A DNA stretch of 18,655 bases from Promethearchaeota archaeon (GTDB lineage: Archaea > Asgardarchaeota > Thorarchaeia > Thorarchaeales > Thorarchaeaceae), in the NCBI GenBank assembly GCA_027031765.1, contig JALVPN010000039.1, forward strand, positions 1-18,655. Direction: 5' to 3'. How positions within the stretch are numbered: position 1 is the stretch's first letter; each line of letters opens with the position of its first letter. The notes beneath the pieces were generated by a model, which saw only the letters and a list, made by a program, of their open reading frames with translations, did not search any database and was not told the DNA's origin. Positions 2,048 to 18,212 of this stretch are shown here, piece by piece. The translations under genes and the position numbers were made by a program.

Positions 2048-3442
2048 TCAGCCGGTGACGGAGAAGCCCTCAAAGACCATGGTCGGGACTGTCACCCCGA
2101 AGGGCGTGAGGGTGGTGTCTGACCCGATACTGGCCAGCTCTCTGAGCCCATCATAGAAGTGTCCTGCGACACTCACTGATCTCAGTGGGTGCTCCACAGA
2201 ACCGTTGACGACGAGGAACGCCGAGGTGGCGACCGCGGAGAACTCGCCAGTCGCGATGTTGGAGTGGAAGATGCCAATGGGCATCTCAGTGATGAGCACC
2301 GCCTTGCCGTCGACCGATGCGATGAGGTCGTCCGGACTCCTGCGTCCCTCCTTTACGACAAGGCCCTTGGTACCGACGGAGGGGGAGCTCTCATACGGTG
2401 CGTTACCACCGAAGAGTTCGCGGCCACGGGCACAGTTACCAGTGGACTCGACGCCGAAGACCTTTGCATGGTAGTGGTCGAAGAGGAAGCCCTTCAGGAC
2501 ACCGCGCTCGATGACGACGTTCTTCTTCTGCGGGCTGCCCTCGGCGTCAACAGCCTGTGTGTTCAGTCCGACCGGGTCCTGTCCGTCATCGTATATTGTG
2601 AGGGCCTTGCTCGCCATCTGTTCGCCTATGTGGTCACACAGTGGCGACACGCCCTCAACGACCGGGCGGCCGAGCGTGGAACGGCCAACTGATGCCAGCA
2701 GGAAGGCACCCGCGGCCCGTGGCGACCATACTGTGGTCATGGTAGTGGTGGCATCGAACGGTGAGGCACCGTGCTGGCTCGCGGCCTCAGATGTTGCGTC
2801 CCGGCCGATGCCGTCAACATTGTATGCCCTGTCGCGAGCGATGTCAAATCCCAGACCGGTCTTGCGTTCCTCACCCACCTTTGTCATGACGTACGCTGTA
2901 CACAGGTTCAGGCCACCACGTGATGCTGCCATCACGCCGTTCGTGTTGCCCACCGCATAGCCGCCCCAGCCCGCGGACGCCTCAGCACTCACCATGACGA
3001 CGCGTCCATCGGTGGCCTTTGCCTCCTCCACAATCCGCTGGCAGTCACGCACCAGTGTCTCGACATCAAGTTCCAAGATGGAGTCAGCGAGGACGCCCTC
3101 GCGGCCGGGTGGCCTCGGCTCAACAAAACCGGGGAACCGCTCGTCCTCCACCGAAACACCGTGTACTATTCCCAGCGCCTCCCTGATGCTGAGCTTGACG
3201 CGCTCGCTGGTGGCACCGCTCGAACACGCAAAGCCGACCCGCCTGCCCTTTGCCACACGCACGGCGTTGCCTGCAACCACGCCAGACTTGGCCGCAACAA
3301 CGCCCTGTGTAATCTCGGCCTCGGCCGAGCTCTGGTAGCAGACGTACACTTCGAACTCCGCGTCCGGGTCTGCAGACGAGCCGTACTTGAGGGCACTGTC
3401 TACAACACTCAGAAGTCCGTCCTTGATACTATCGTAGTCCAT
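2048..3442 (-). CDS. pmbA: TldD/PmbA family protein, non-catalytic PmbA (TldE) subunit
   Basis: 464 aa, with AVRVAKGRRVGFA, IYDDG...DAEGSPQ, NIATGEFS and V.HPLRSVSVAG motifs. No HExxxH. It lies directly downstream of tldD. Confidence 0.9.
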   Translation of the reverse strand: MDYDSIKDGLLSVVDSALKYGSSADPDAEFEVYVCYQSSAEAEITQGVVAAKSGVVAGNAVRVAKGRRVGFACSSGATSERVKLSIREALGIVHGVSVEDERFPGFVEPRPPGREGVLADSILELDVETLVRDCQRIVEEAKATDGRVVMVSAEASAGWGGYAVGNTNGVMAASRGGLNLCTAYVMTKVGEERKTGLGFDIARDRAYNVDGIGRDATSEAASQHGASPFDATTTMTTVWSPRAAGAFLLASVGRSTLGRPVVEGVSPLCDHIGEQMASKALTIYDDGQDPVGLNTQAVDAEGSPQKKNVVIERGVLKGFLFDHYHAKVFGVESTGNCARGRELFGGNAPYESSPSVGTKGLVVKEGRRSPDDLIASVDGKAVLITEMPIGIFHSNIATGEFSAVATSAFLVVNGSVEHPLRSVSVAGHFYDGLRELASIGSDTTLTPFGVTVPTMVFEGFSVTG

Positions 3443-3450
3443 CGTCGCGT

Positions 3451-3455
3451 CCTCC
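3451..3455 (-). promoter_or_regulatory. Shine-Dalgarno GGAGG for pmbA
   Basis: CCTCC on the plus strand, 8 nt upstream of the pmbA ATG and overlapping the tldD stop codon. Confidence 0.7.
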
Positions 3456-4882
3456 TAGCTTGCCCGGCCCCCAAAGACCACGCCGTCCATCACAAGCATG
3501 GGCCCACCCAGGCCGACGGGCAGGGGCGACTGGCCGCCCTTACCGCAGCCACCGAAGTACCCCGAGAACAGCTTGAGCTCCTTGGTCGCACCCTCGACAC
3601 GGCCAAGCAGCTCAAGGATGTTGCCTGATAGCGACACCTCACGGACTGGGTACTTGACCTCACCGTTCTCGACCCAGTAGCCGCGTATTGCCTTGAACAG
3701 GAAGGAGCCGTCGCCTTCGACCTGGCCGCCCTGGGTCTGCACCGCATAGACGCCGGTACCTAGGAGTTCGAGCGCCTCCTCTTCCGTGAGGTCGCCCGGC
3801 ACGAAGAAGGTGTTGGTCATGCGCGGTATTGGCGGGAACGCAAAGGTCACCGCACGTGCATTGCCGGTGGGCCGCTGTCCGAGGTGCTTGGCCGTGCCCC
3901 GGTTGTGGAGGTAGTGTTCCAGGGTACCATGGTCAAGGACCACGGTGCGGTCAGCGGGGGTGCCCTGGTCATCGTAGGGGACCCATAGGCCGCCGTACGC
4001 CTTCACATCCGGGGTGCCCGTGTCCACAATTGTTGTGTGCTCCGTACCGAGCTTCTCACCAATCTTTCCTGTGAGCGGCGAGCCACCTGTCACAATGAAG
4101 TCCGCCTCGCTGAGGTGTCCGAACGACTCGTGGGCCAGTACGCCGACCAGGTGGTTCTCCACCAGTGCCCGCATCCTGCCGGCCGGACAGGGGTGTGCCC
4201 TGAGCTGTTCCTTCGCACGCAGACCTGCCTCGCGGCCGATGTCCTCAGGCGTGTGGCCGTCTGTGCTGAAGAACTCCAGGCCGAAGGTACCGCCATAGCC
4301 CTCCGAGCCCGTGACGAGGGCGCCACTGTCAGTGCGTGACGTGACCACGCAACGCAGGTCCGTCACCAGGAACTCCCAGTCAATATGCGAGCCGTCGCTG
4401 TTGACGAGCGTCTTCCGGCCGTAGAGCTCGCCGTAGAGGCCTCGGACATTGCGGATGTCCGCTCCATGCTCGCGGGCCGACTCCACCATCCTGTTGACGA
4501 GTCCGGTCTTGAAGGCCAGGTCGTGGTCACGTGGATGGGCCCTCACGCGCACCGTGTCAGAAGGGCGGCTCTCCACCGCAGTGCCACGGTCAAAGGGTAG
4601 GCGCAGGGTGGCCGCCCCACTTGACGCACGGGCCATCTTGAACGCCCGTTCTGCGGCCTGCTTGACGTCGGCCCAGTCGGTGCTCGCCGTGAAGGAGAAA
4701 CCCGACACGCCTTCGTAGTAACATGACACGCCCACTCCGGAACGCGACTTCACCTCGATGTCCTTCCACACATCGTCCGTGCGGTGAAGGGTCCGGAGGA
4801 CAAGGTCATCATAGCGGGCCTCCACAGCCTCAGCGCCCAGAGACTCGCCGTACTCGACGCATTTCTCAAGGGTGTCTATCAT
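3455..4882 (-). CDS. tldD: TldD/PmbA family metalloprotease, catalytic TldD subunit
   Basis: 475 aa, with AHESFGHLSEAD (HExxGH), YDDQG, IPRMTNT and C-terminal CGKGGQ (the Cys metal ligand). Confidence 0.93.
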   Translation of the reverse strand: MIDTLEKCVEYGESLGAEAVEARYDDLVLRTLHRTDDVWKDIEVKSRSGVGVSCYYEGVSGFSFTASTDWADVKQAAERAFKMARASSGAATLRLPFDRGTAVESRPSDTVRVRAHPRDHDLAFKTGLVNRMVESAREHGADIRNVRGLYGELYGRKTLVNSDGSHIDWEFLVTDLRCVVTSRTDSGALVTGSEGYGGTFGLEFFSTDGHTPEDIGREAGLRAKEQLRAHPCPAGRMRALVENHLVGVLAHESFGHLSEADFIVTGGSPLTGKIGEKLGTEHTTIVDTGTPDVKAYGGLWVPYDDQGTPADRTVVLDHGTLEHYLHNRGTAKHLGQRPTGNARAVTFAFPPIPRMTNTFFVPGDLTEEEALELLGTGVYAVQTQGGQVEGDGSFLFKAIRGYWVENGEVKYPVREVSLSGNILELLGRVEGATKELKLFSGYFGGCGKGGQSPLPVGLGGPMLVMDGVVFGGRAS

Positions 4883-5047: not shown

Positions 5048-5171
5048 TGGGGCGGCCCGCAGGCACAGCGTCGTGCCCACAGGACACCGCCAGGACTGGC
5101 CTCTTGAGAGTGTGGGTCAGGGGGTGCACCCGGCTCCTCGGGCCGCTGCACTGTGCTGGACACTGGAAGGG

Positions 5172-5177
5172 TTATAT
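5172..5177 (+). promoter_or_regulatory. TATA box (TTATAT) with purine-rich BRE-like flank; probably a leaderless transcript of the radical SAM gene
   Basis: GGAAGGGTTATATC starts its TATA 30 nt before the ATG at 5202, the spacing expected for a leaderless archaeal mRNA. No SD is present. Confidence 0.6.
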
Positions 5178-5201
5178 CTGCAGCTGCTGACCATTCTTGC
5201 G

Positions 5202-6083
5202 ATGCCACACTACGAGGGGACCATCTGGCGGCCTCCAAGTGAGGCCCGCAGCCTGATCTTGCAGGCCACGGTAGGGTGCTCGCACAACGCCTGTATCTTC
5301 TGTGTGTCCTACCGTGACAGGGAGTTCAGGGTGCGTGGTGCAGAGGGCATAGCCTCCGACCTCAGGTCGCTGGACGGTCGGCTGCTGGCCCGTGTCAGGA
5401 GGGTCTTCCTTGCAGATGGCAACGCGCTTGCAATGAGCACCACAGAGATGGAGGAGTGCCTCGACGTACTCAGGGAGCACCTGCCATCCCTTGAGAGGGT
5501 CGGGGTCTACGCATATGCGAAGGACCTTCGGGACAAGACCGTCGGAGGCCTGAGGCGGCTGCGCGGCCGGGGACTGGGGATTGTCTACCTCGGGCTTGAG
5601 ACCGGTGACGAAGACCTGCTGAGGTGGTGCCGGAAGGGTGTCACGGTGCGCGAGACTATCGAGGCGTGCAAGAAGATACGGCAGGCCGGGATTCCCCTCT
5701 CGCTGACCATCATCTTGGGGCTCGGCGGCAGGGAGCGTTCGAGGGCCCACGCCACCGCCACTGCACGGGCACTCAACGAGATAGACCCTGAGTATGTGGG
5801 TGCTCTCACCCTGATGACGCCCCCGGGCGTTCCCATCTACGACATGGTGCGGGACGGCAGGTTCAGGGCGATGGGACCGCTCGAAGTGCTGGGTGAACTG
5901 AGGACGCTTGTGGAGGGCCTGGACCTCACGGACTGCACGTTCCGGACGAACCATGCGTCAAACTACCTCCCACTAGGTGGCACCCTTGGCCGTGACAAGA
6001 GCCTGCTCCTTGATGCTATCGACAGGGTGCTCATGACTGGTGACACCACTATGCTGCGGCCGGAGGGCCTGAGGGGACTGTGA
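5202..6083 (+). CDS. Radical SAM protein (COG1032-like, RPPSE family, no B12-binding domain), 293 aa
   Basis: YEGTIWRPPSEA...GCSHNACIFC (CX4CX2C cluster motif), FLADGNAL, YLGLETGD, IILGLGG and FRTNHASNYL. The start is set at ATG 5202 from the family N-terminus and TATA spacing; the track start at 5073 is too long. Confidence 0.9.
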   Translation: MPHYEGTIWRPPSEARSLILQATVGCSHNACIFCVSYRDREFRVRGAEGIASDLRSLDGRLLARVRRVFLADGNALAMSTTEMEECLDVLREHLPSLERVGVYAYAKDLRDKTVGGLRRLRGRGLGIVYLGLETGDEDLLRWCRKGVTVRETIEACKKIRQAGIPLSLTIILGLGGRERSRAHATATARALNEIDPEYVGALTLMTPPGVPIYDMVRDGRFRAMGPLEVLGELRTLVEGLDLTDCTFRTNHASNYLPLGGTLGRDKSLLLDAIDRVLMTGDTTMLRPEGLRGL

Positions 6084-8942: not shown

Positions 8943-9305
8943 ATGCCAAGCATATACATCATCGGACAGTGGGGCCCCGAAGCTGCGGAGAGGTGCTACG
9001 GCCCCTTCGTGACTGCGACCACTGCTCAGGCCTCAGACATAGAGGCGAAAGTGTTCCTCATGATGGACGCGGTGTACCTCATGAAGAAGGGAGTTGCCGA
9101 GAAGGTCAAGGCCCCCGGTTTCCCGCCCCTGCACGAGCTGATAACCGAGTTCCTTGACAATGGCGGCAAGGTCGAACTCTGTTCCAACTCGGCCGAGTTC
9201 AGGGGCATTACCGAGGCCGACCTCAGAGACCCACGCATCACGATTGCAGGCGCAGCCACGATGGTGGACGACGTCCTGAAATATGACAGGGTCATGTACT
9301 TCTAG
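8943..9305 (+). CDS. DsrE/DsrF-like family protein (120 aa)
   Basis: GPEAAERC...VFLMMDAVYL...GGKVELCSNSAEFRG...AGAA, with the conserved Cys80 and an extra Cys18. GGAGG SD at 8927-8931. Confidence 0.87.
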   Translation: MPSIYIIGQWGPEAAERCYGPFVTATTAQASDIEAKVFLMMDAVYLMKKGVAEKVKAPGFPPLHELITEFLDNGGKVELCSNSAEFRGITEADLRDPRITIAGAATMVDDVLKYDRVMYF

Positions 9306-9598: not shown

Positions 9599-12500
9599 CT
9601 ACTGTTGCTGGGCCTGCTGTTCGTCAGGCCACTCTGCCGGCAACGAGCCCGTCAGGACGGACAGTCGCCTGCGGAGGACGAGTCCGGCAAGTGTGACGAT
9701 GACCGTACCACCGATGACCGGTGTTGACTCTGCACTCAGCGGGAGCACTGGGGGTGGCACTGATACGACTATGCTGAACGAGCGCGCCACAGAGGCTCCG
9801 GCGGGCAGACCGTGCAGGGTCACGTGGAGGCCGTACGTGCCGGTGGCATCGAGGCGGAGGGAGAGTGTGACAACGCACGAGGCGTTTACTGGCACCTCAC
9901 CCCGGTAGACAGTGGTACCGTTGTCCGATACTATGACGATTGTTGCAGTGCCGTTCCAGACCTCAGGGACACCAGCGACCTCGACCGCAAGGCTGAGGGT
10001 GCCCTCCTGTCCGACGACGAGGGTGGCCTCACGCAAAGACACGCTTGCAGTGGGTACCACAACTACTTGGCACTGGGCGGAAGAGGGGGCGTAGATGTCG
10101 TTGCCCCGGAAGGATATGTGGAACTGGTACACACCGGCGAGCAGTGGCCCAACGTCCACCAAGGCGGTGCCAGACATGTCGGTGACGACCGTCAGGGAGG
10201 TCACTGTCGAGCCGGTGACGTTGGAGACCACCTCCACGGAGAGTGTGGCACCGCGGATTTTCTGCACGCCGCTGGTGAGAGTGGTGTGTAGTACCAGCGG
10301 TTCAGGATAGGTGGTGTTTGTTGGTGGTGACACTGCGACCTGCGTGGCATAGCGCACGAGGCATACCAGTGACAGGGACGCATTGGAGAGGTGGTCATCG
10401 CCGTCGAAGGACACGAGGACAGAGTAGTTACCTGCCTGCTGCGGCGTCCACTCGAAAGACGCCACCCCGCTTGCTGAGTCGATGCTTGCCCAGCCAGACA
10501 ACAGACCGCCGATGACGTAGGAGCCATCCGGGGCCACGACACAGGCCCTCAGCGAGACAGGCGACACCACTGCACCGAGGGAGTCCACCACTGTCACATC
10601 GATGCTGTGGGCCACGGCAATGGTCCCCGGGAGCGTGCTGTCCACGACCACAATGGACGTATGGGCGGTCACCTCGAAGGCCCACGAGGTGTTGGAGCCC
10701 AGACGGTCGGGTGCAGTGACGGAGACCTCTAGGTGGTAGCTCCCAGTGGGCAGACCGTGGAGGGCAAGGTGTGTGCACGATGCGTTGTACGAGAGGCGGT
10801 CGGCAAGCATGACGGGGCCGGTGGGACCGACAAGCGAGATGTCCATGGAGCAGGTCTCAGGGGGGACCACCATGCCGAGCTCGTCAACCACCCTCACGAC
10901 GATGGCGCTGTTACTTGCCCTGTCGAGTGTGGACGGCCCGTAGACCTCAAGGCTGGTGGTGCCGACGACGAAGACAGTGACAGAGGCCGTGGACGCATAG
11001 TAGTGCTCTGTCCGGTTGAACCTGAACACGAGCGTGTAGTTGCCCATGGCATGCAGGGTCACGTTGAGGCGCTGTGGCCCCTCACCGTACTGTGTGAGGG
11101 TGCCTGATGCGACCACGCCCGATACTTCATGGAAGGCCCTGTAAGAGACCGTGCGGCCCTCAAGTGTGTGGCCGCTAGCGTCGGTCAACAGCACCTCGAG
11201 GACAACGGGGCTGCGTCCCGCCACCAGCTGCCCTGTGCTCACCACCGTGACACTGAGCACGGTCGAAATACGGACGTGGACCTCTACAGTGAGCGTTGCC
11301 GGGAGGTATACGCCGGCGCCACCGAACTCTGCGGTGACGGTCCAGGAGCCCGCGGCAGACAGCACGGTCGACCACTCGATATGGCCGGTAGCATTCGTGA
11401 CCAGTGTGACCGGACCTACAGTGGCTGGTCCCGATACACCGACTCTGACCTCCATTCCGGCAAGCACCTCGCCTGTCTGTGTCCGCAGCTTCGTGACGAA
11501 CAGCAGTGGGTCGCCGAGCTCGATCTCGACAGGGGAGGACAGGAGGTCAAGCTGGGTGGCAACAAAGACCGTGTGTGATGAGTCGCTACTGCACGGGTGA
11601 ACAGCGGTCGAGCCCTGGGACTCGATGTGTACACGGTAGAGACCGAATGTGTCCGGAGTGAAGGAGACCGTTCCTGTCCCGTCCTCCACCTGTACTCTGG
11701 CGTACGGGAGGGCGCCGAAGAGCACAGTGTTGCCGTTCGGGTCGGTCACATGCACGGTGACTGTCAGGCCAGAAAGTGGCGCCCCGAGCTCGCTGGACGC
11801 GTGTACTGTGAGCACCAGTGGTGAGCCCATGACCGGGGTCTCTGGTCGCACTGTGGTGTGGACGATGCAGTCTGTCATAACTGTGAGCTCCCCCTCGGTG
11901 CCGCAGCCCAGGAGGAACTCCTCAGGCACGGGAGCAGCCCTGACGGTCAACAGTCCGTGCGTCTGGTTGGCATGGTAGGTGACGGTAGCGGTACCGTTCT
12001 CGTCTGTGGCAACGGTGGTCGTCCAGATGGGGACGAGGTCCTGTCCGAGCACCTGGAACAACACCACGACCCCCTGCCGGTCACTTGCAACGGAGAGGTT
12101 GTAGCAGATTGACACGCTGTCGAACAGGTCCACAGGGTCGGCAGAAACTGTGATCGTGCCGCTGCCGACCTCCATGACAGACATAGTGCTTGAGTTGCTG
12201 GCGTCAAGGTAGTGGTCATCGCCCATGTGCACCACTGATACGTGGGCGGTCCCGCGCCGTGAGGGTAGCCAGTATACCGTGTCCGTACTGTTGGAAGAGG
12301 TGAACATCGCCTTGAAGACCGTGGTCCCGTCCATCTGGACCGTGAGCACGAGGGTGCGTTTCGGCACCGGTGCGCCCAACATGTCATGCAGACTCACTCT
12401 GAAGGCGGTCTCGGAGCCGACAGTGGCCGTGAGCGCGTGGTCGAGCATGATGACTGGCTGACAGCGCACCCTCTGGACGACTGTGGCCACGGCAGAGGCG

Positions 12501-15500
12501 TTCAGGCCTGAGCCCTCGAAGCTCGCGTTGACCAAGAAGTCCCCGACGACGTCAAACCTGTGTGTGATGACGCACGTCCCGTCCGCAGAGGTATGGAGGA
12601 GCTCAGAACGCACTGCTGTCCCGTTCCTGGTGATGGTGATGACAATGGGCAGGCCAGAGAGCGGGGCACCACGCCAGTCTTTGAGCGTGGTGACGATGGG
12701 TACGGTCTTGCCTTGCCACACAGGATAGCCGTCGAGGCTGAGTGTGAGCGTCGTAGTGCCCATTGCAGTGGCCTTCTCGGAGCCGGTGGTGCCGGTGAAC
12801 CAGCCCTGTGGGGCGACGGTATAGCTGACCGTAAGGAGGCCCGGGTGAGGGACGTAGACCGAGTAGATGATCCTGCCGTCGGGGCCAGTGGTGTTCGTGG
12901 CATTGAAGATGGCAGTACCGTCAAGCAGTACTCTGGTGTCTACCACTACCGATGCAGCAGGCCTATGTGACGTGTCTGTCATGGTGAGCACAAGTGTGTC
13001 CTCAGCCGGCGCACGGACGTCAGGGCTCCACGCGACTGTCAGGGAGATGTCTTCGGTCACGCCCGTGTCGAGTGAGGAGGTGGCCCGTTCGAACCAGTCC
13101 TGACGGGCGCTCGTTGCGTTCACCGTGTTGATGCCCCGCGCCGACGGTGTCCACACGACGATGAGGGTGCCGTTGTGGTCGGTGCTCCCGGTGTGGTCGA
13201 GCAGCACTACTTCGTCAGGAGCGGTGACGGTCACGGCCAGTGTGAGGCCTTCAATGGGGTTGCCAGTGTGGTCGGTGACGGTGACGCGGATCCAGCCCGG
13301 GGTGCCAACATGGGGCTGCTGGGAGGCCTCAACGGTCAGTGTCACCGGCACCCACAGTGTCGTCTCGGTCGCAGCGCTCGCACCACCACGGGACACGGAG
13401 CCTGCGTACTGGGCCGTCAGGCTGTACTTGCCAGGGCTGGCGGTAGACCATGCATACGAGACCATGCCGCTACTGTTCGTGAGGAGCAGTTCCTCGACCA
13501 CGGTGGTATCTGGCAGGTACACTATGCGGAGTGTGACCGGGGCGCCCACCACTGGCACACCGTGCGAGTCGGACACCTTGGCCCATACGCTCCAGCTGTC
13601 TGTGACCAGCCCCTCAGCTGGGGTCCCCCCTATGGACACCGAGGCCTGGTCCCAGGCCACACTCGACGCGTGTGCGCTGCTGGCAAGGAGGTGACCGGTG
13701 GCTGCATGTTCGGCAGAGAGGTTGTACTGTCCGTTTTCCTGCATTACGAAGGTCACGCACGCCATTCCAGTGCCGTTGGTCTGCACTGTGTCGTCAACTA
13801 CGGTAGTACCGGACGGTGCGACCACGACGACGTGTACGTACTGTCCCGCGATGGGCGCACCACCGTGGCCTGTCAGGCGGACCGTCTGGGTGACCTGGCT
13901 GTACTGGTCCAGAGTCCCATTGTCCAGCCACGTGAGGGCGGTCGCCTCATACACGTCGATAGTGCCGGACGTCTCCGTGCCCAACATGGTGCCGTTCTTC
14001 TCTGTGCGGAGCGTGTAGTTGAAGCGGCCGCGGGTCTGAGGTGTCCAGATGAAGTGCTGTCCGTGCCCTGCCGAGACCGCAGTGTCGTTGAACACCAGGG
14101 CGCCGGACTGGTCGCAGACATGCAGTGTGACCAGCTGTCCGACAACGTAGGAGCCGTTCTCGTCAAAGAGCAGCGACCATGGGATGACAAGGTGGGGGCC
14201 CAGGTCCGCAGTGATGTGGTCGTCGGCCTCAAAGTGTACTGGTACGGGCTTAACAATGGTCACTGGCTGACGCAGGACACACTGGTCGCAGTGGTTTCGT
14301 GTGAGGGTCACAGTGAGGTTGTAGATGCCAGCGGACAACCCGGTCGTGGGGACTGAGAACTCAAAGGGGCTGTACTCCCTGTAGTGGTACTCCACGTAGT
14401 TGGGAGGGTCACCGAGGCGTACCGTCACGTTTGTGAGCCCAGCGTCAGAGCCCGTGGCCAGTGTCCAGTCCACGGTACCGTTGATGGGGTCCCCGACGAG
14501 CACAGAAGACGTGGCGACTGATAGCGTGCCGTTGAGCGACGACCTCACCTCGAACCGTACCTCAGAGAACGAGCGTGACGCACCCCAGTCCACGACCATG
14601 AGCGCAAGGCGCGTCCAGCCGAGGTGTTCCGGATTGTTGGGGATGTCGAGGGAGACCGTCTGCTGACCGCTGACGCCCCTCAGCTCGTAACAGTCACCAA
14701 AGAGATACGCGCGTAGTGTGTGGTTGCCCGTCGGGGCTGTTATGTTGACCTCCACATCAATGGTGCCACCCAGAGTGGCAGTGCCCACCGCCTCTGCGGT
14801 CATGGACGACCCCGTCACCTCACGTATTTCAGGACGGAGGCCCAGAACGGACACCATCGTCAGTACGTCGGCAGTGAACACGGGTTGCCACAGGATGGTG
14901 GAGTTGTACCACCCGTCTGAGAACGGCCTGTCGCCAAGTGCCTGGAGGACCATGTCCCTGTCGATGGCCTCAAGGGAAACTGAGAACCCCGACTCGTTGA
15001 GCAGGGCGAGGGTCTGGACATCCATGCTCAGGTCCCAGAGGTCGTTGTACTGTATGCGTGCAGAAATGTTGGCGGAGATCTCAGAGGCCATCGAGGCCGT
15101 GACGAGGCCGAGGCGGAGTGCGGTGCGTGTGGACAGGAAGTCGACTGCCGGCTGGTGTCCTGCGAAGGGCCTGAGAGTCCAGCCCTCGGTCGACCAGTGG
15201 CCACCGAGGTACTCGGCCATGACAGCAGAGTCGAGGGCCGAACGGTGCTGGACCCAGTCAAGTGAGTCGATCATGAAGAGGGCCTCCACAGCAGCGACCG
15301 TGTACTGCATGTGCGGTGCTACCGGGTAGGTGCAGAGCCTGAAGTGACCGGAGTAGTGCTGGCGCCGAGAGACGTACGTCCGGACTGCGGAGACCTGTGC
15401 GTCTGTGAGCTCGTGGCCCGCTGCAAGGGACATCCCGGTGCCGAAGAGGTTGGTCCAGACGCTGCGTGTCCCGTACTGGTCGATGTAGTACTCGGGAGAG

Positions 15501-17440
15501 GCAACGTAGGTGATATTGGCAGGATAGACCCGCCAGTCACCGAACTGTGCAAGATATTCGTGGAGGGCGGTCGTGTTCATCTCAGAGACCGCATGGGCCA
15601 TGCGTCCCATCCTGGACATCCAGTACCCCCACATGGTGCTGGGTATGGGTTCCATGACCTCAAGAGCGACCGGCGACTCACAGGTGCGCAGGAACTGGAC
15701 GATTCCGTCCGCGACTGCGGAGGACGACTCGCCGACAACGGACAGACAGCGCGCCACGGCTGCGCTCTCGGCCATCTTGCCCACACCGTCGGAGGCCACG
15801 ATACCGAAGCCGCCTGACACACATTGGCTGTCAGCGAACCAGGCCAGTCCGGCGGTGAGGTTCTCAGGCGGCAGTGTGCCCATTATTGACATCGCGGAGA
15901 GGGCCGCGGCAGTGCCCACAGTGTCCTCGCTGGAGGGCTCTATCCGGTTCTGGTATGAGCCGTCCCCCCTAGCATTGTCCTGGAGCCACTCGGTGAGCTT
16001 CACCGGGTCGTTGTGGGTCGTGTTCAGGTATGACAGGCTCACGAGGTACTGTTCAGCATACGTGTTCCTTGCGTCGAGGCTGTCAGGGTTCTTCGATACC
16101 GCACCCCAGTACACGGACTGTTCAGGCTTGGTCGTCTGAGTGCCGTCGACAACACAGGCCCGCAACCATGACTTGAGCGCCGCCGTGTCAATGGCGCCAA
16201 GCCTGTGGGCCTCACCGAGGGCCTCTGTGACGTAGTAGGTCACCGTCAGGTCGTCCTCGTAGCCGCCATCAGGGTCCTGTCGGGCCGAGAGGTACGCAAC
16301 AAGAGCGTCCACATCAAAGTCGGCCTCCAGGCCCATGACCACAGTCAGCCAGAGGCCCTGAGCGGTCGAAGTATTGGAGGGTGTCCCGTCTTCCACCGGG
16401 GCGAAGGCCGTGCCATCGGGGCCAGTATCATATACGGACTGTAGGTATGCACGGACGAGGGGCACGTGGTCATCGCGCCAGACGCTCCAGTTGTCACCTG
16501 ACAGCAGTGCCCGTGCGACATGCACGCCGTGGTACAGAGAACGCAGGAAGGGCTGGTGCCAGTAGGACATGCCCCCTGGTACAGCTGTGGGGGCCGGGGG
16601 CTGAGAGTCAACAACCCTCCCGGTAACAGCGTCCTCGTGTAGCGCCGTCGAGTAGGCAATCACGTTCACGAGGAGGCCCAGGCCGTCGTCCGTGAGGCTG
16701 TTGGGGTCTTCAGGCCCGAACAGGAAGAGGTCGAGCGGCCACGAGTCATAGCGCACTGGTGCCAGGGCCGGGGGTTCGCCGCACACGAGGTCGACAAGGC
16801 GCGAGTGCGCTGTCTGCACACGGTCACATGGTAGCTGCACCGTGTCCTCTGTCGAGAGCAGCGCACCCATGGTGAGCTGCACCGGTCCCTCCAGGAACAC
16901 CGCTCCCGAATACCTGGGTGTGGTGGCAAGAGTGTAGTACACGGGAGCGGTCTGGGAGGGTGGACTGAGGCCCCGCAGTCGGTGGAGGAGCCATGCGGCG
17001 CGTCCGAGGGCTACTACTGGCCGGTCCACGCGCACGAGCAGCTCTAGGAGGGCCTCGTCAGCGGCCTGGCCTTTGTCAGAGCCAAGGCTTGCATCAAGGA
17101 CAATCCCTTCGGCACAGAACAGGTCGGTCTCCCCGGTGAGCACAGCGGTCTGGTCCGTGACCACGACCTCAAGGCCGTACGACCGAAGGGCCGCCGCAAC
17201 GGCCTCTCCCCGACATTGGACGGAGCCGTTGTGCAGCTCGACAACAACGTATGGCCCGGCAGTTGTGCGGGCCCAGTCGCTGGACAGCTGTGTCCGTGGC
17301 ACGCCTGTGTGCGGCGTTGGCTGTGAGACAGGGACAGGAAGCGGCTGTCCGACCCGGGGGGATACGAGGGAGGGGAAAAGACAGAATACGACTATAGTAA
17401 TGGCTATCACTCTGCACTTTGAGACTCGCAACACTCTCAT
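9599..17440 (-). CDS. Giant membrane-anchored surface protein (2613 aa): signal peptide, DJ-1/GATase-like domain, prenyltransferase/squalene-cyclase-like helical repeats, Ig-like stalk, C-terminal TM
   Basis: ATG 17440 overlaps the upstream TGA and starts MRVLRVSKCRVIAITIVVFCLF (basic then hydrophobic). Repeats include YLSARQDPDGGY, WLQDNARGDGSY, WFADSQCVSGGFG and YVSRRQHYSGHF. About 14 or more repeats follow the pattern LTDxxGxPxxG...TxxxG...GxYxxxAxFxG. There are dozens of N-x-S/T sequons, and the TM segment VIGGTVIVTLAGLVL is followed by RRR. Confidence 0.88.
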   Translation of the reverse strand: MRVLRVSKCRVIAITIVVFCLFPSLVSPRVGQPLPVPVSQPTPHTGVPRTQLSSDWARTTAGPYVVVELHNGSVQCRGEAVAAALRSYGLEVVVTDQTAVLTGETDLFCAEGIVLDASLGSDKGQAADEALLELLVRVDRPVVALGRAAWLLHRLRGLSPPSQTAPVYYTLATTPRYSGAVFLEGPVQLTMGALLSTEDTVQLPCDRVQTAHSRLVDLVCGEPPALAPVRYDSWPLDLFLFGPEDPNSLTDDGLGLLVNVIAYSTALHEDAVTGRVVDSQPPAPTAVPGGMSYWHQPFLRSLYHGVHVARALLSGDNWSVWRDDHVPLVRAYLQSVYDTGPDGTAFAPVEDGTPSNTSTAQGLWLTVVMGLEADFDVDALVAYLSARQDPDGGYEDDLTVTYYVTEALGEAHRLGAIDTAALKSWLRACVVDGTQTTKPEQSVYWGAVSKNPDSLDARNTYAEQYLVSLSYLNTTHNDPVKLTEWLQDNARGDGSYQNRIEPSSEDTVGTAAALSAMSIMGTLPPENLTAGLAWFADSQCVSGGFGIVASDGVGKMAESAAVARCLSVVGESSSAVADGIVQFLRTCESPVALEVMEPIPSTMWGYWMSRMGRMAHAVSEMNTTALHEYLAQFGDWRVYPANITYVASPEYYIDQYGTRSVWTNLFGTGMSLAAGHELTDAQVSAVRTYVSRRQHYSGHFRLCTYPVAPHMQYTVAAVEALFMIDSLDWVQHRSALDSAVMAEYLGGHWSTEGWTLRPFAGHQPAVDFLSTRTALRLGLVTASMASEISANISARIQYNDLWDLSMDVQTLALLNESGFSVSLEAIDRDMVLQALGDRPFSDGWYNSTILWQPVFTADVLTMVSVLGLRPEIREVTGSSMTAEAVGTATLGGTIDVEVNITAPTGNHTLRAYLFGDCYELRGVSGQQTVSLDIPNNPEHLGWTRLALMVVDWGASRSFSEVRFEVRSSLNGTLSVATSSVLVGDPINGTVDWTLATGSDAGLTNVTVRLGDPPNYVEYHYREYSPFEFSVPTTGLSAGIYNLTVTLTRNHCDQCVLRQPVTIVKPVPVHFEADDHITADLGPHLVIPWSLLFDENGSYVVGQLVTLHVCDQSGALVFNDTAVSAGHGQHFIWTPQTRGRFNYTLRTEKNGTMLGTETSGTIDVYEATALTWLDNGTLDQYSQVTQTVRLTGHGGAPIAGQYVHVVVVAPSGTTVVDDTVQTNGTGMACVTFVMQENGQYNLSAEHAATGHLLASSAHASSVAWDQASVSIGGTPAEGLVTDSWSVWAKVSDSHGVPVVGAPVTLRIVYLPDTTVVEELLLTNSSGMVSYAWSTASPGKYSLTAQYAGSVSRGGASAATETTLWVPVTLTVEASQQPHVGTPGWIRVTVTDHTGNPIEGLTLAVTVTAPDEVVLLDHTGSTDHNGTLIVVWTPSARGINTVNATSARQDWFERATSSLDTGVTEDISLTVAWSPDVRAPAEDTLVLTMTDTSHRPAASVVVDTRVLLDGTAIFNATNTTGPDGRIIYSVYVPHPGLLTVSYTVAPQGWFTGTTGSEKATAMGTTTLTLSLDGYPVWQGKTVPIVTTLKDWRGAPLSGLPIVITITRNGTAVRSELLHTSADGTCVITHRFDVVGDFLVNASFEGSGLNASAVATVVQRVRCQPVIMLDHALTATVGSETAFRVSLHDMLGAPVPKRTLVLTVQMDGTTVFKAMFTSSNSTDTVYWLPSRRGTAHVSVVHMGDDHYLDASNSSTMSVMEVGSGTITVSADPVDLFDSVSICYNLSVASDRQGVVVLFQVLGQDLVPIWTTTVATDENGTATVTYHANQTHGLLTVRAAPVPEEFLLGCGTEGELTVMTDCIVHTTVRPETPVMGSPLVLTVHASSELGAPLSGLTVTVHVTDPNGNTVLFGALPYARVQVEDGTGTVSFTPDTFGLYRVHIESQGSTAVHPCSSDSSHTVFVATQLDLLSSPVEIELGDPLLFVTKLRTQTGEVLAGMEVRVGVSGPATVGPVTLVTNATGHIEWSTVLSAAGSWTVTAEFGGAGVYLPATLTVEVHVRISTVLSVTVVSTGQLVAGRSPVVLEVLLTDASGHTLEGRTVSYRAFHEVSGVVASGTLTQYGEGPQRLNVTLHAMGNYTLVFRFNRTEHYYASTASVTVFVVGTTSLEVYGPSTLDRASNSAIVVRVVDELGMVVPPETCSMDISLVGPTGPVMLADRLSYNASCTHLALHGLPTGSYHLEVSVTAPDRLGSNTSWAFEVTAHTSIVVVDSTLPGTIAVAHSIDVTVVDSLGAVVSPVSLRACVVAPDGSYVIGGLLSGWASIDSASGVASFEWTPQQAGNYSVLVSFDGDDHLSNASLSLVCLVRYATQVAVSPPTNTTYPEPLVLHTTLTSGVQKIRGATLSVEVVSNVTGSTVTSLTVVTDMSGTALVDVGPLLAGVYQFHISFRGNDIYAPSSAQCQVVVVPTASVSLREATLVVGQEGTLSLAVEVAGVPEVWNGTATIVIVSDNGTTVYRGEVPVNASCVVTLSLRLDATGTYGLHVTLHGLPAGASVARSFSIVVSVPPPVLPLSAESTPVIGGTVIVTLAGLVLRRRLSVLTGSLPAEWPDEQQAQQQ

Positions 17441-18036
17441 GAGGCTGGCACCCCCAAGACAAGACAGTATGCCACGTACAGGGAGATGCACACACAGACC
17501 GCCTCGACGACCCCAAGGACCGGCCTCTGCCGGAAAGCGGCTGCCAGCAGGGAGACGTCCCCGCTGCGTACCGCCGAGTTCACGAGAACACATACGCACA
17601 GGTACTGGCATGCCAGGACCCACACTGTTGGTGCCGCAAGCGCGACCGGGAGGGCGGCCATTGCAAGTGCCATGTACACGGACAGGAACACTGTCAGGAA
17701 CATGTATGTCAGGACGATGCCCACCTCGGGCGGCCTGTCCACTGTGAAGTATAGGTTGACCTCCCCGTACGTGGTGCTGGTCCGCACCTGTTCCACCTCG
17801 AGCCCCATGACCTTGGCCAGTACGTAGCGCACGGCCATGTGGACAATGAGGCCCGGCAGGAGCAGTACGGACACGAGTGTGAGGGCTGTGTTACGGATCC
17901 AGCCCTCGAACTCTCGCTTCTTGCCCGAGAAGAGCAGGAGCCCACGCACACCGGTGGCTATGAGCAGGACTAGTGGTGTCAGGTGGAAAGACACCACAGC
18001 ATCTGCGACGAGGAATCCCGGAATGTCGAGTTCCAT
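17437..18036 (-). CDS. Multi-pass membrane protein resembling M50-like/DUF3267 zincins with a degenerate active site (199 aa)
   Basis: AAGGAG SD 10 nt before ATG 18036. PGLIVHMAVRYVLAKVMG aligns with PGxxxHExxHxxxxxxxG, and the late NSAVRSGD aligns with the SxxD third-ligand motif. The stop overlaps the start of the giant gene. Confidence 0.7.
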   Translation of the reverse strand: MELDIPGFLVADAVVSFHLTPLVLLIATGVRGLLLFSGKKREFEGWIRNTALTLVSVLLLPGLIVHMAVRYVLAKVMGLEVEQVRTSTTYGEVNLYFTVDRPPEVGIVLTYMFLTVFLSVYMALAMAALPVALAAPTVWVLACQYLCVCVLVNSAVRSGDVSLLAAAFRQRPVLGVVEAVCVCISLYVAYCLVLGVPAS

Positions 18037-18212
18037 TGTCAGCGGGCTCCTTTGTCCTCGGGCGGACATCCTGTCCGGGACAGTAGGTGCCGACAAGATA
18101 GATAGGGGTTACCATCACCCCGGACCGGGCCAATGACCGCTGGCACACAGACGTGGGGCCGTATGACAGTCGCAGTCCAGAAAATCGTAGTCCATACCGG
18201 CAGCCAGCAGAC

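Follow-up and report, generated by a model that had tools for sequence, protein, structure and literature searches.

Gene and domain organization

The window analysed here, an 18,655-nucleotide stretch of contig JALVPN010000039.1 from a Promethearchaeota archaeon, carries on its minus strand a gene for a 2613-residue surface protein (9599–17440), in which an all-helical head precedes a long stalk of immunoglobulin (Ig)-like repeats. The gene lies within a single very long open reading frame (ORF) of the same strand (9599–17623) and was delimited from the ORF list and its translation. Translation probably begins with the ATG at 17440, in overlap with the stop codon of the upstream gene (ATGA), and the translated product is identical to the recorded protein P0004. 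An initial annotation, made from the sequence alone, had singled out 15251–16303, a segment lying within this ORF, and had likened its repeats to those of the beta subunit of human Rab geranylgeranyltransferase (RabGGT), with the zinc-binding Cys replaced by Thr.

From the N terminus to the C terminus, the protein is composed of a signal peptide, a Pro/Thr linker, a domain of ~210 residues, the head, ~250 residues of beta-rich sequence, the Ig-like repeats, a transmembrane (TM) helix and a tail. The signal peptide (MRVLRVSKCRVIAITIVVFCLFPSLVSP; 17357–17440, minus strand) and the single C-terminal TM helix (PVIGGTVIVTLAGLVL; 9674–9721, minus strand) are predictions assigned by reading the sequence directly; the former shows a basic n-region and a hydrophobic core and is followed by the Pro/Thr-rich linker, and the latter is followed by RRR and has a conserved position in 19 full-length relatives. 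The N-terminal domain (16637–17263, minus strand) gave no match in the Pfam scan. It was found by tblastn in 37 of 41 related loci, and is kept across Thorarchaeotal, Odin/Baldrarchaeotal and sister-family homologues. Its Atlas leads are DUF4960, DUF2194 and xanthan-lyase-fragment clusters of Bacteroidota (0.94–0.95, with shared features below the guide value).

The head (P0002; 571 residues, 14924–16636, minus strand) is all-helical and comprises two parts. Barrel 1 (15485–16564, minus strand) is supported by an AlphaFold2 (AF2) model built with a multiple sequence alignment, by VIA-align structural comparison and by the best PF00432 stretch (residues 132–281). The C-terminal part (14924–15484, minus strand) is a partial second toroid with eight helices in the model and two further repeat motifs. 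The stalk (9761–14923, minus strand) consists of the ~250 residues of beta-rich domains and 15 Ig-like repeats with a period of ~99 residues, which an iterated hidden Markov model places at residues 1090–2544; Pfam matches along the stalk are Big_1, Filamin, Big_3_5, MG2 and MG4. At the C-terminal end, a cytoplasmic tail of 24 residues (9602–9673, minus strand) carries LPAEW (9629–9643), and the C termini of the 19 full-length homologues define a motif, [LM]Px[DE]W[DE], that lies a few residues from the end in nearly all of them. Tryptophan-acidic motifs bind TPR domains in eukaryotes, and the form of the tail motif recalls them.

The ORF contains 49 N-x-S/T sequons, eight of them in the head. 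Together, the predicted N-terminal signal peptide, the C-terminal TM helix and the head sequons suggest a type-I membrane-anchored, probably glycosylated surface protein whose head would lie outside the cell. A head in this location would be kept away from prenyl diphosphates and cytosolic substrates, in contrast to the prenyltransferase beta subunits, which are cytosolic.

Fold of the head

The head matches PF00432 with 41.4 bits (E 1.5e-10), above the Pfam cut-off of 26.5 bits, and has the corresponding fold, as is characteristic of the terpenoid cyclase/prenyltransferase toroid superfamily. No match of the head to PF13243 or PF13249 was found in the Pfam scan, and an NCBIfam scan of the protein gave nothing useful. 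When a profile of 38 Thorarchaeotal heads was compared with the Protein Data Bank (PDB), RabGGT beta was the best match (37 bits, E 1.2e-8), and the match to squalene-hopene cyclase (SHC) was weak (E 0.013).

AF2 prediction from the head sequence alone was poor, with a predicted local distance difference test score (pLDDT) of 34; the model built from the 38-sequence alignment, with a pLDDT of 90.6 and a predicted template modelling score of 0.87, was used instead. VIA-align comparison of this model with 48,161 PDB representatives placed highest the beta subunit of geranylgeranyltransferase type I (GGTase-I; Z 20.1, root-mean-square deviation (rmsd) 3.1 Å, 255 residues aligned), followed by Candida GGTase-I beta and farnesyltransferase (FTase) beta (both Z 19.8), SHC (Z 19.7, with the superposition limited to 261 residues of one barrel) and RabGGT/GGTase-III beta (Z 19.4, rmsd 3.5 Å, 246 residues). 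Z values were 14–17.6 for sugar epimerases and glycosidases that share this fold and 15–16 for thioester domains. The five best matches are tied within one Z unit and all span model residues 17/52–332, so that barrel 1 of the model can be assigned to the terpenoid-cyclase/prenyltransferase superfamily as a complete (alpha/alpha)6 toroid. On the modelled structure, prenyltransferase betas (Z 19.4–20.1) and SHC (Z 19.7) cannot be told apart. Foldseek against the PDB also put RabGGT beta first (E 3e-6), at template modelling scores of 0.28–0.36 and rmsd of 16–18 Å, and its ranking was not relied on.

Beyond barrel 1, head residues 385–571 form eight further helices that resemble the first hairpins of a toroid. 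The profile stretch 385–465 aligns with RabGGT beta 37–113 at 9.9 bits, and the Atlas leads for this part of the head are PF00432 clusters.

Register of the repeats and absence of catalytic motifs

The four strings quoted in the initial annotation lie on the minus strand where it had placed them, with DDLTVTYYVTEAL at 16217–16255, RLGAIDTAALKSWLRAC at 16154–16204, QHYSGHF at 15341–15361 and APHMQYTVAAVEALFMIDSLD at 15257–15319. A single-sequence phmmer search against all PDB chains reproduced the proposed pairings with human RabGGT beta at 4.2 and −0.9 bits; the E-value for the whole protein is 1.7, and the three pieces occur in reverse order relative to RabGGT beta. With such scores the string pairings are not significant, and the likeness to RabGGT beta thus stands at the level of the family (PF00432, profile and structure) and falls at the level of the strings, where it does not rise above chance.

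By comparison, the profile yields one collinear stretch, in which head residues 84–276 align with human RabGGT beta 43–230 at 25.5 bits, in agreement with the structural ranges. HMMER also gives a weaker alternative register, displaced by two repeats, as is expected for a pseudo-symmetric repeat protein. Judged by the collinear register, the residue pairings first proposed are off register, and the segments that they join are non-collinear and belong to two different sub-domains. The DDLTVTYYVTEAL/RLGAID... segment (16154–16255) is part of barrel 1; the QHYSGHF...APHMQYTVAAVEALFMIDSLD segment (15257–15361) is part of the C-terminal portion of the head, and QHYSGHF...APHMQYTVAAVEAL sits in the C-terminal half-toroid, outside barrel 1. 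According to hhalign (E 4.8e-5), both quoted segments represent the same internal repeat of the head. DDLTVTYYVTEAL had been set against the zinc-site segment of RabGGT beta, PDVCYSWWVLASL, whereas in the collinear register DDLTVTYYV aligns with repeat 2 of RabGGT beta and not with the zinc repeat. The Asp described as kept reads Asp, Ser, His and Tyr in 11, 10, 9 and 7 family members, respectively. The zinc-binding Cys is indeed absent, but the Thr said to replace it belongs to the wrong repeat, and the true position lies elsewhere.

To locate that position, the zinc ligands were mapped from RabGGT beta to P0041, a more canonical Odin/Baldrarchaeotal homologue, and from there to the head, with agreement between MAFFT and phmmer; the mapping is one of alignment and not of superposed coordinates. 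The P-D-V-C-Y of RabGGT beta reads P-Q-I-S-E in P0041, and its Asp238 and Cys240 correspond to K287 and A289 of the head, respectively, downstream of a Q-x-x-S-G-G-F motif at head residues 271–277. Asp238-Val-Cys240 is thus matched, by this transitive alignment, with K-M-A at 15770–15778 (minus strand), and K287 is nearly invariant in the family. The third ligand, His290, would fall next to W336, at a variable position, as judged by ungapped extension only. Furthermore, no Cys column exceeds 70% in the 38 family heads. Since the zinc site of the prenyltransferases (D238, C240 and H290 of RabGGT beta) is absent, prenyltransferase catalysis by the head is very improbable.

Other catalytic motifs of the superfamily and of related toroids are likewise missing. 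The initial annotation had seen neither DxCY nor DxDD, which holds for the window and for the family of 38 heads, with DxDD occurring in one family head at a non-conserved place. Identity as a class II terpene cyclase was rejected for want of DxDD, and identity as an alpha-2-macroglobulin-like thioester protein for want of CxEQ, the CGEQ/CxEQ thioester motif being found in none of the 38 heads. The head family does conserve charged residues: H27, D283 and H348 are invariant, and H208, D210, D225, E326 and E382 are nearly so. A prenyltransferase alpha subunit, for whose PPTA repeats the initial annotation had proposed a search, was not found in the 95%-complete genome, where the best PF01239 match scores 17 bits against a cut-off of 29.5; sub-threshold PF01239 noise of the same level occurs in 13 of 14 control prokaryotic genomes.

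Distribution and conservation of the family

Within the 301 genomes of the phylum that were sampled, 61 of the 76 genomes from the same family carry a match, nearly always as one full-length copy with an E-value below 1e-200 and an open frame of ~2600 residues. All 41 related loci in species-representative genomes are archaeal, with Thorarchaeota, Hermodarchaeota and Promethearchaeota among their titles, and the family is, as far as the searches reach, restricted to Asgard archaea. Annotated lengths of 2535–2621 residues are held even at 26–48% identity, and a sister-family homologue that is 26% identical still has 2596 residues. Counterparts in another Asgard family measure ~1650 residues, and the Odin/Baldrarchaeota versions 1337–1344. 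The head is the best-conserved region, with a mean pairwise identity of 0.41–0.48 compared with 0.34 in the stalk, and its C-terminal part is the highest of the whole protein (0.48). Our analysis thus documents a stalked surface protein that is near-universal in Thorarchaeia, constant in length and encoded by a single copy, and that has shorter counterparts elsewhere among the Asgard archaea.

Proposed function of the stalked toroid

The reading that we favour, at a probability of about 60%, is that the head acts as a receptor or an adhesin-like, non-enzymatic binding module on a stalk of fixed length. The toroid lacks, whether through loss or from the outset, the Asp-Cys-His zinc site of prenyltransferases, the DxDD acid used by class II cyclases and the thioester that marks macroglobulin thioester domains (TEDs), and about 15 Ig-like repeats, fixed in number, would keep it clear of the membrane. 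The funnel of the toroid, with its many conserved aromatic residues, lies at the place of substrate binding in prenyltransferases and may capture an external ligand, for which a glycan, an isoprenoid-bearing molecule or a surface component of a partner cell are candidates. The ligand site would be formed by conserved funnel residues with which the inner helices begin (T133, T242, D283/K287 and W336/W339) and whose positions are those of the zinc ligands in prenyltransferases. In addition, the conserved motif of the cytoplasmic tail may connect the protein to an intracellular partner. The architecture, with a tip domain, a tandem beta-sandwich stalk and a cell anchor, is that of fibrillar-adhesin-like proteins.

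Three considerations weigh against a binding module. The lining of the funnel by conserved residues is deduced from repeat-position homology only. The invariant or nearly invariant His, Asp and Glu residues (H27, H208, D210, D225, D283, E326, H348 and E382) may form a Cys-free metal or acid-base site, and hence make the head an enzyme. The constant stalk length and the near-universal single copy fit a structural component of the envelope at least as well as an adhesin.

This last consideration leads to the alternative that survives best, which we nevertheless hold to be unlikely: the protein would be the principal structural component of the Thorarchaeial envelope, standing on its stalk as a canopy or spacer and comparable to surface-layer (S-layer) proteins of the tetrabrachion type. 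Contacts between neighbouring heads would build an outer layer at a constant height above the membrane, and the toroid would serve as a scaffold or for lattice formation instead of receiving a ligand. The presence in 61 of 76 genomes, almost always as one copy, suits such a role, as do the length of 2535–2621 residues kept down to 26% identity, the fixed lengths of ~1650 and ~1340 residues in other Asgard families, a stalk that is fairly evenly conserved (0.34 identity), the membrane anchor and the many sequons. Cryo-tomography of a cultured Asgard archaeon speaks against it, although that organism is of a different class: no ordered S-layer was seen, and "complex surface proteins" were found to protrude from the single membrane (PMC9834061).

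We regard as improbable a second alternative, in which the head would work outside the cell as an enzyme whose active site departs from the canonical ones, for example as a glycan-, polysaccharide- or terpenoid-modifying (alpha/alpha)6 enzyme on a stalk. The three invariant and five nearly invariant charged residues would be accounted for, the sugar epimerases, isomerases and glycoside hydrolases of this fold superpose at Z 14–17.6 over up to 273 residues, more than are aligned with the prenyltransferases, and the weak Atlas leads of the N-terminal domain point to polysaccharide-utilisation domains. However, the sequence profiles match PF00432 only and no glycosidase or epimerase family, the Z scores lie 2–3 units below those of prenyltransferases and SHC, and most of the conserved charged residues fall within repeat-loop motifs (DGSF, GFE and AHxDP) and are likely to be structural.

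Models of eukaryogenesis invoke syntrophic contacts, and the Asgard cell surface is regarded as their likely mediator (PMC9834061), although hardly any of its proteins have been characterised. The stalked-toroid family thus offers a concrete candidate for the "complex surface proteins" of the tomograms, and one that lends itself to expression and binding work.

Relationship to eukaryotic prenyltransferase beta subunits

Because CaaX and Rab prenyltransferases are hallmarks of eukaryotes, the initial annotation held that a non-catalytic archaeal relative would bear on their origin, with the caveat that the similarity might be a generic repeat consensus. We compared the head with other toroid proteins, each comparator being queried singly against the PDB. 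P0040 scored 87 bits with RabGGT beta and 60 bits with FTase beta, P0047 scored 53 bits with RabGGT beta, P0045 scored 45 and 55.6 bits and P0043 scored 45 and 41 bits with RabGGT beta and FTase beta, respectively; a 410-residue toroid protein of the same genome scored 34 and 27 bits. The Asgard homologue P0041 gave 62 bits with RabGGT beta. By comparison, the head gave 10 bits as a single sequence and 37 bits as the 38-sequence profile. The caveat is thus borne out, as other surface toroids match RabGGT beta much better (45–87 bits) than the head does. It is also the result that the initial annotation had specified as contradicting its proposal.

An exhaustive phmmer search with the head as query, covering 1.84 billion cluster representatives, returned 44 proteins, ~30 of them with the same architecture, and no eukaryotic beta subunit reached E 1e-3 in this search; a handful of generic multi-toroid surface proteins matched the head at 35–52 bits, above its score with RabGGT beta. 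A family-profile protein search restricted to near lengths returned two fragments of the same family and nothing else. P0041 itself is nearer P0040 (82.7 bits for the best single domain) and P0047 (100 bits in total) than RabGGT beta (61.4 bits), with total scores against generic toroids of 100–181 bits, and nothing in the 301 Asgard genomes is more than 33% identical to P0047. These bit-score controls argue against the head branching with the eukaryotic betas: as far as sequence comparison can tell, it has no special kinship with them, and its likeness is the one that prokaryotic surface toroid-repeat proteins as a class show to RabGGT beta, the most regular eukaryotic beta subunit. The head being no closer to the betas than generic toroids are, its proposed bearing on the origin of the eukaryotic enzymes lapses. 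In sum, the toroid fold and the missing zinc site are upheld, and neither the proposed register nor the special eukaryotic kinship is.

Two evolutionary readings fare poorly on these data. It is very improbable that an archaeal surface-toroid clade including the head family was the prokaryotic stock of the eukaryotic prenyltransferase beta subunits, which would make the Asgard stalked proteins their extracellular, zinc-less cousins; in its favour, RabGGT beta is the best solved-structure match of all tested members of this clade (P0040, 87 bits; P0041, 62 bits; P0047, 53 bits). The narrower proposal, that the head is a specific inactivated relative of the Rab/CaaX betas, preserved in Asgard archaea and informative on their origin, can draw on the Asgard host, on RabGGT beta as the top solved structure for the family profile (E 1.2e-8) and in the Foldseek ranking set aside above, on the single collinear stretch of P0041 (residues 326–574 to RabGGT beta 43–280, 62 bits), and on cyclases scoring lower or not at all. 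We give it hardly any credence, since generic toroids outside the family show the same ranking with higher scores (P0040, 87 bits; P0047, 53 bits), P0041 is closer to those toroids than to RabGGT beta, no other toroid compared is as diverged as the Thorarchaeotal head (10 bits as a single sequence), the VIA-align Z scores do not part the betas from SHC, no eukaryotic beta appeared at E 1e-3 among the 1.84 billion representatives, no alpha subunit was found in the genome, and the head is predicted to be extracellular. As a relic for the origin of eukaryotic protein prenylation the head therefore carries no weight: the likeness is a generic one, and Surkont and Pereira-Leal had in 2016 already pointed out that archaea commonly hold beta-subunit-like proteins without evidence of a heterodimer (PMC4915359).

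Neighbouring genes and other toroids of the genome

Directly upstream of the surface-protein gene and on the same strand, 17437–18096 encodes a multi-pass membrane protein of up to 219 residues whose start codon is uncertain. By tblastn, a multi-pass membrane protein of ~200 residues occupies this place in 36 of the 41 related loci; the protein has no Pfam match. A decayed HExxH protease site was considered for its HMAVR and was rejected, as the His reads N, Y or T in 36 homologues, in which PG and the Arg are invariant. The remaining neighbours, at 2048–4882 (minus strand), 712–1449, 5073–6083 and 8943–9305 (all plus strand), belong to families comprising a PmbA/TldD pair, an ODP-type metallo-beta-lactamase fold, radical SAM, Ssb-like OB, DUF22 and DsrE-like proteins, and none of these genes shows a link to the surface protein. 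The DUF22 and Ssb-like OB families are archaeal in type, in keeping with an Asgard host from the Thorarchaeotal family.

The stand-alone 410-residue PF00432 protein of the same genome (72.9 bits; G000:C165:6121-6849, L002:964-2196, minus strand) has as its best solved relatives bacterial class II cyclases of the drimenyl-diphosphate-synthase type (E 1e-13) and SHC (2e-12), and is possibly a terpene cyclase. Two weaker PF00432 matches were detected at G000:C79:349-807 and G000:C204:884-1132 (41 and 19 bits), one of them at a contig end. In some archaeal PF00432 clusters of the Atlas (Thermoproteota and Bathyarchaeota), 11–31% of members also match PF05817, the N-terminal part of ribophorin II, and the luminal domain of this eukaryotic oligosaccharyltransferase subunit may be related to archaeal extracellular toroids. 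The head shows no PF05817 match even at E 10, and for it the ribophorin II link remains a lead only.

Comparison with known systems

The nearest relatives outside the family (35–52 bits by phmmer) are prokaryotic "prenyltransferase/squalene oxidase repeat-containing" surface proteins (P0040, P0043, P0044, P0045 and P0047), a label that NCBI also gives to fragments of the Asgard family. Like the protein described here, they are secreted or anchored and combine one or more PF00432 toroids with beta-sandwich repeats (Ig/PKD), a C-terminal TM helix and a basic tail. The Asgard protein differs in its head repeats, which are much more diverged (41 versus 84–245 bits with PF00432), in having one full and one partial toroid preceded by a family-specific N-terminal domain, in a stalk of ~1700 residues of fixed length, and in its Asgard-only distribution, conserved tail motif and conserved upstream membrane-protein gene. 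For Corynebacterium glutamicum, a member of this group has been listed among the putative cell-surface proteins (PMC12021427).

Among solved structures, RabGGT beta (GGTase-II/III; PDB 1DCE, 3PZ1 and 6O60) is the best sequence match and shares with the head the (alpha/alpha)6 toroid and a repeat motif, Q-x-x-D-G-G-F, followed by D-x-x-x-aromatic-S/T at the start of the next helix. In contrast, the zinc positions of the head read K and A, with a probable G or variable residue for the third ligand, and no Cys is conserved; the head has an extra half-toroid, is fused to a stalk, is predicted to be extracellular and has no PPTA alpha subunit found in its genome, at an overall identity of 12–15%. 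SHC and the other class II terpene cyclases belong to the superfamily by their fold, and SHC aligns with the head over 261 residues at Z 19.7. The head differs from SHC in lacking DxDD, and its superposition on SHC covers only one barrel of a possible beta-gamma-like didomain arrangement.

The thioester proteins (alpha-2-macroglobulin, complement C3/C4/C5, TEP1 and CD109) likewise combine an alpha/alpha toroid, the TED, with arrays of Ig-like macroglobulin domains. Their TEDs reach Z 15–16 with the head, and MG2 and MG4 are among the Pfam matches of the stalk. However, the protein described here has no CGEQ/CxEQ motif, no bait region or CUB domain was recognised in it, and its toroid lies N-terminal to the Ig array, whereas theirs is embedded near the C terminus. 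In overall plan, with a tip domain, a long beta-sandwich stalk and a cell anchor, the protein resembles the Ig-repeat adhesins SasG, SiiE and MpIBP and the tetrabrachion of Staphylothermus. It is distinguished from such fibrillar adhesins and stalked S-layer proteins by a repeat number that is fixed rather than variable, by a TM anchor with a cytoplasmic motif, and by a toroid at its tip.

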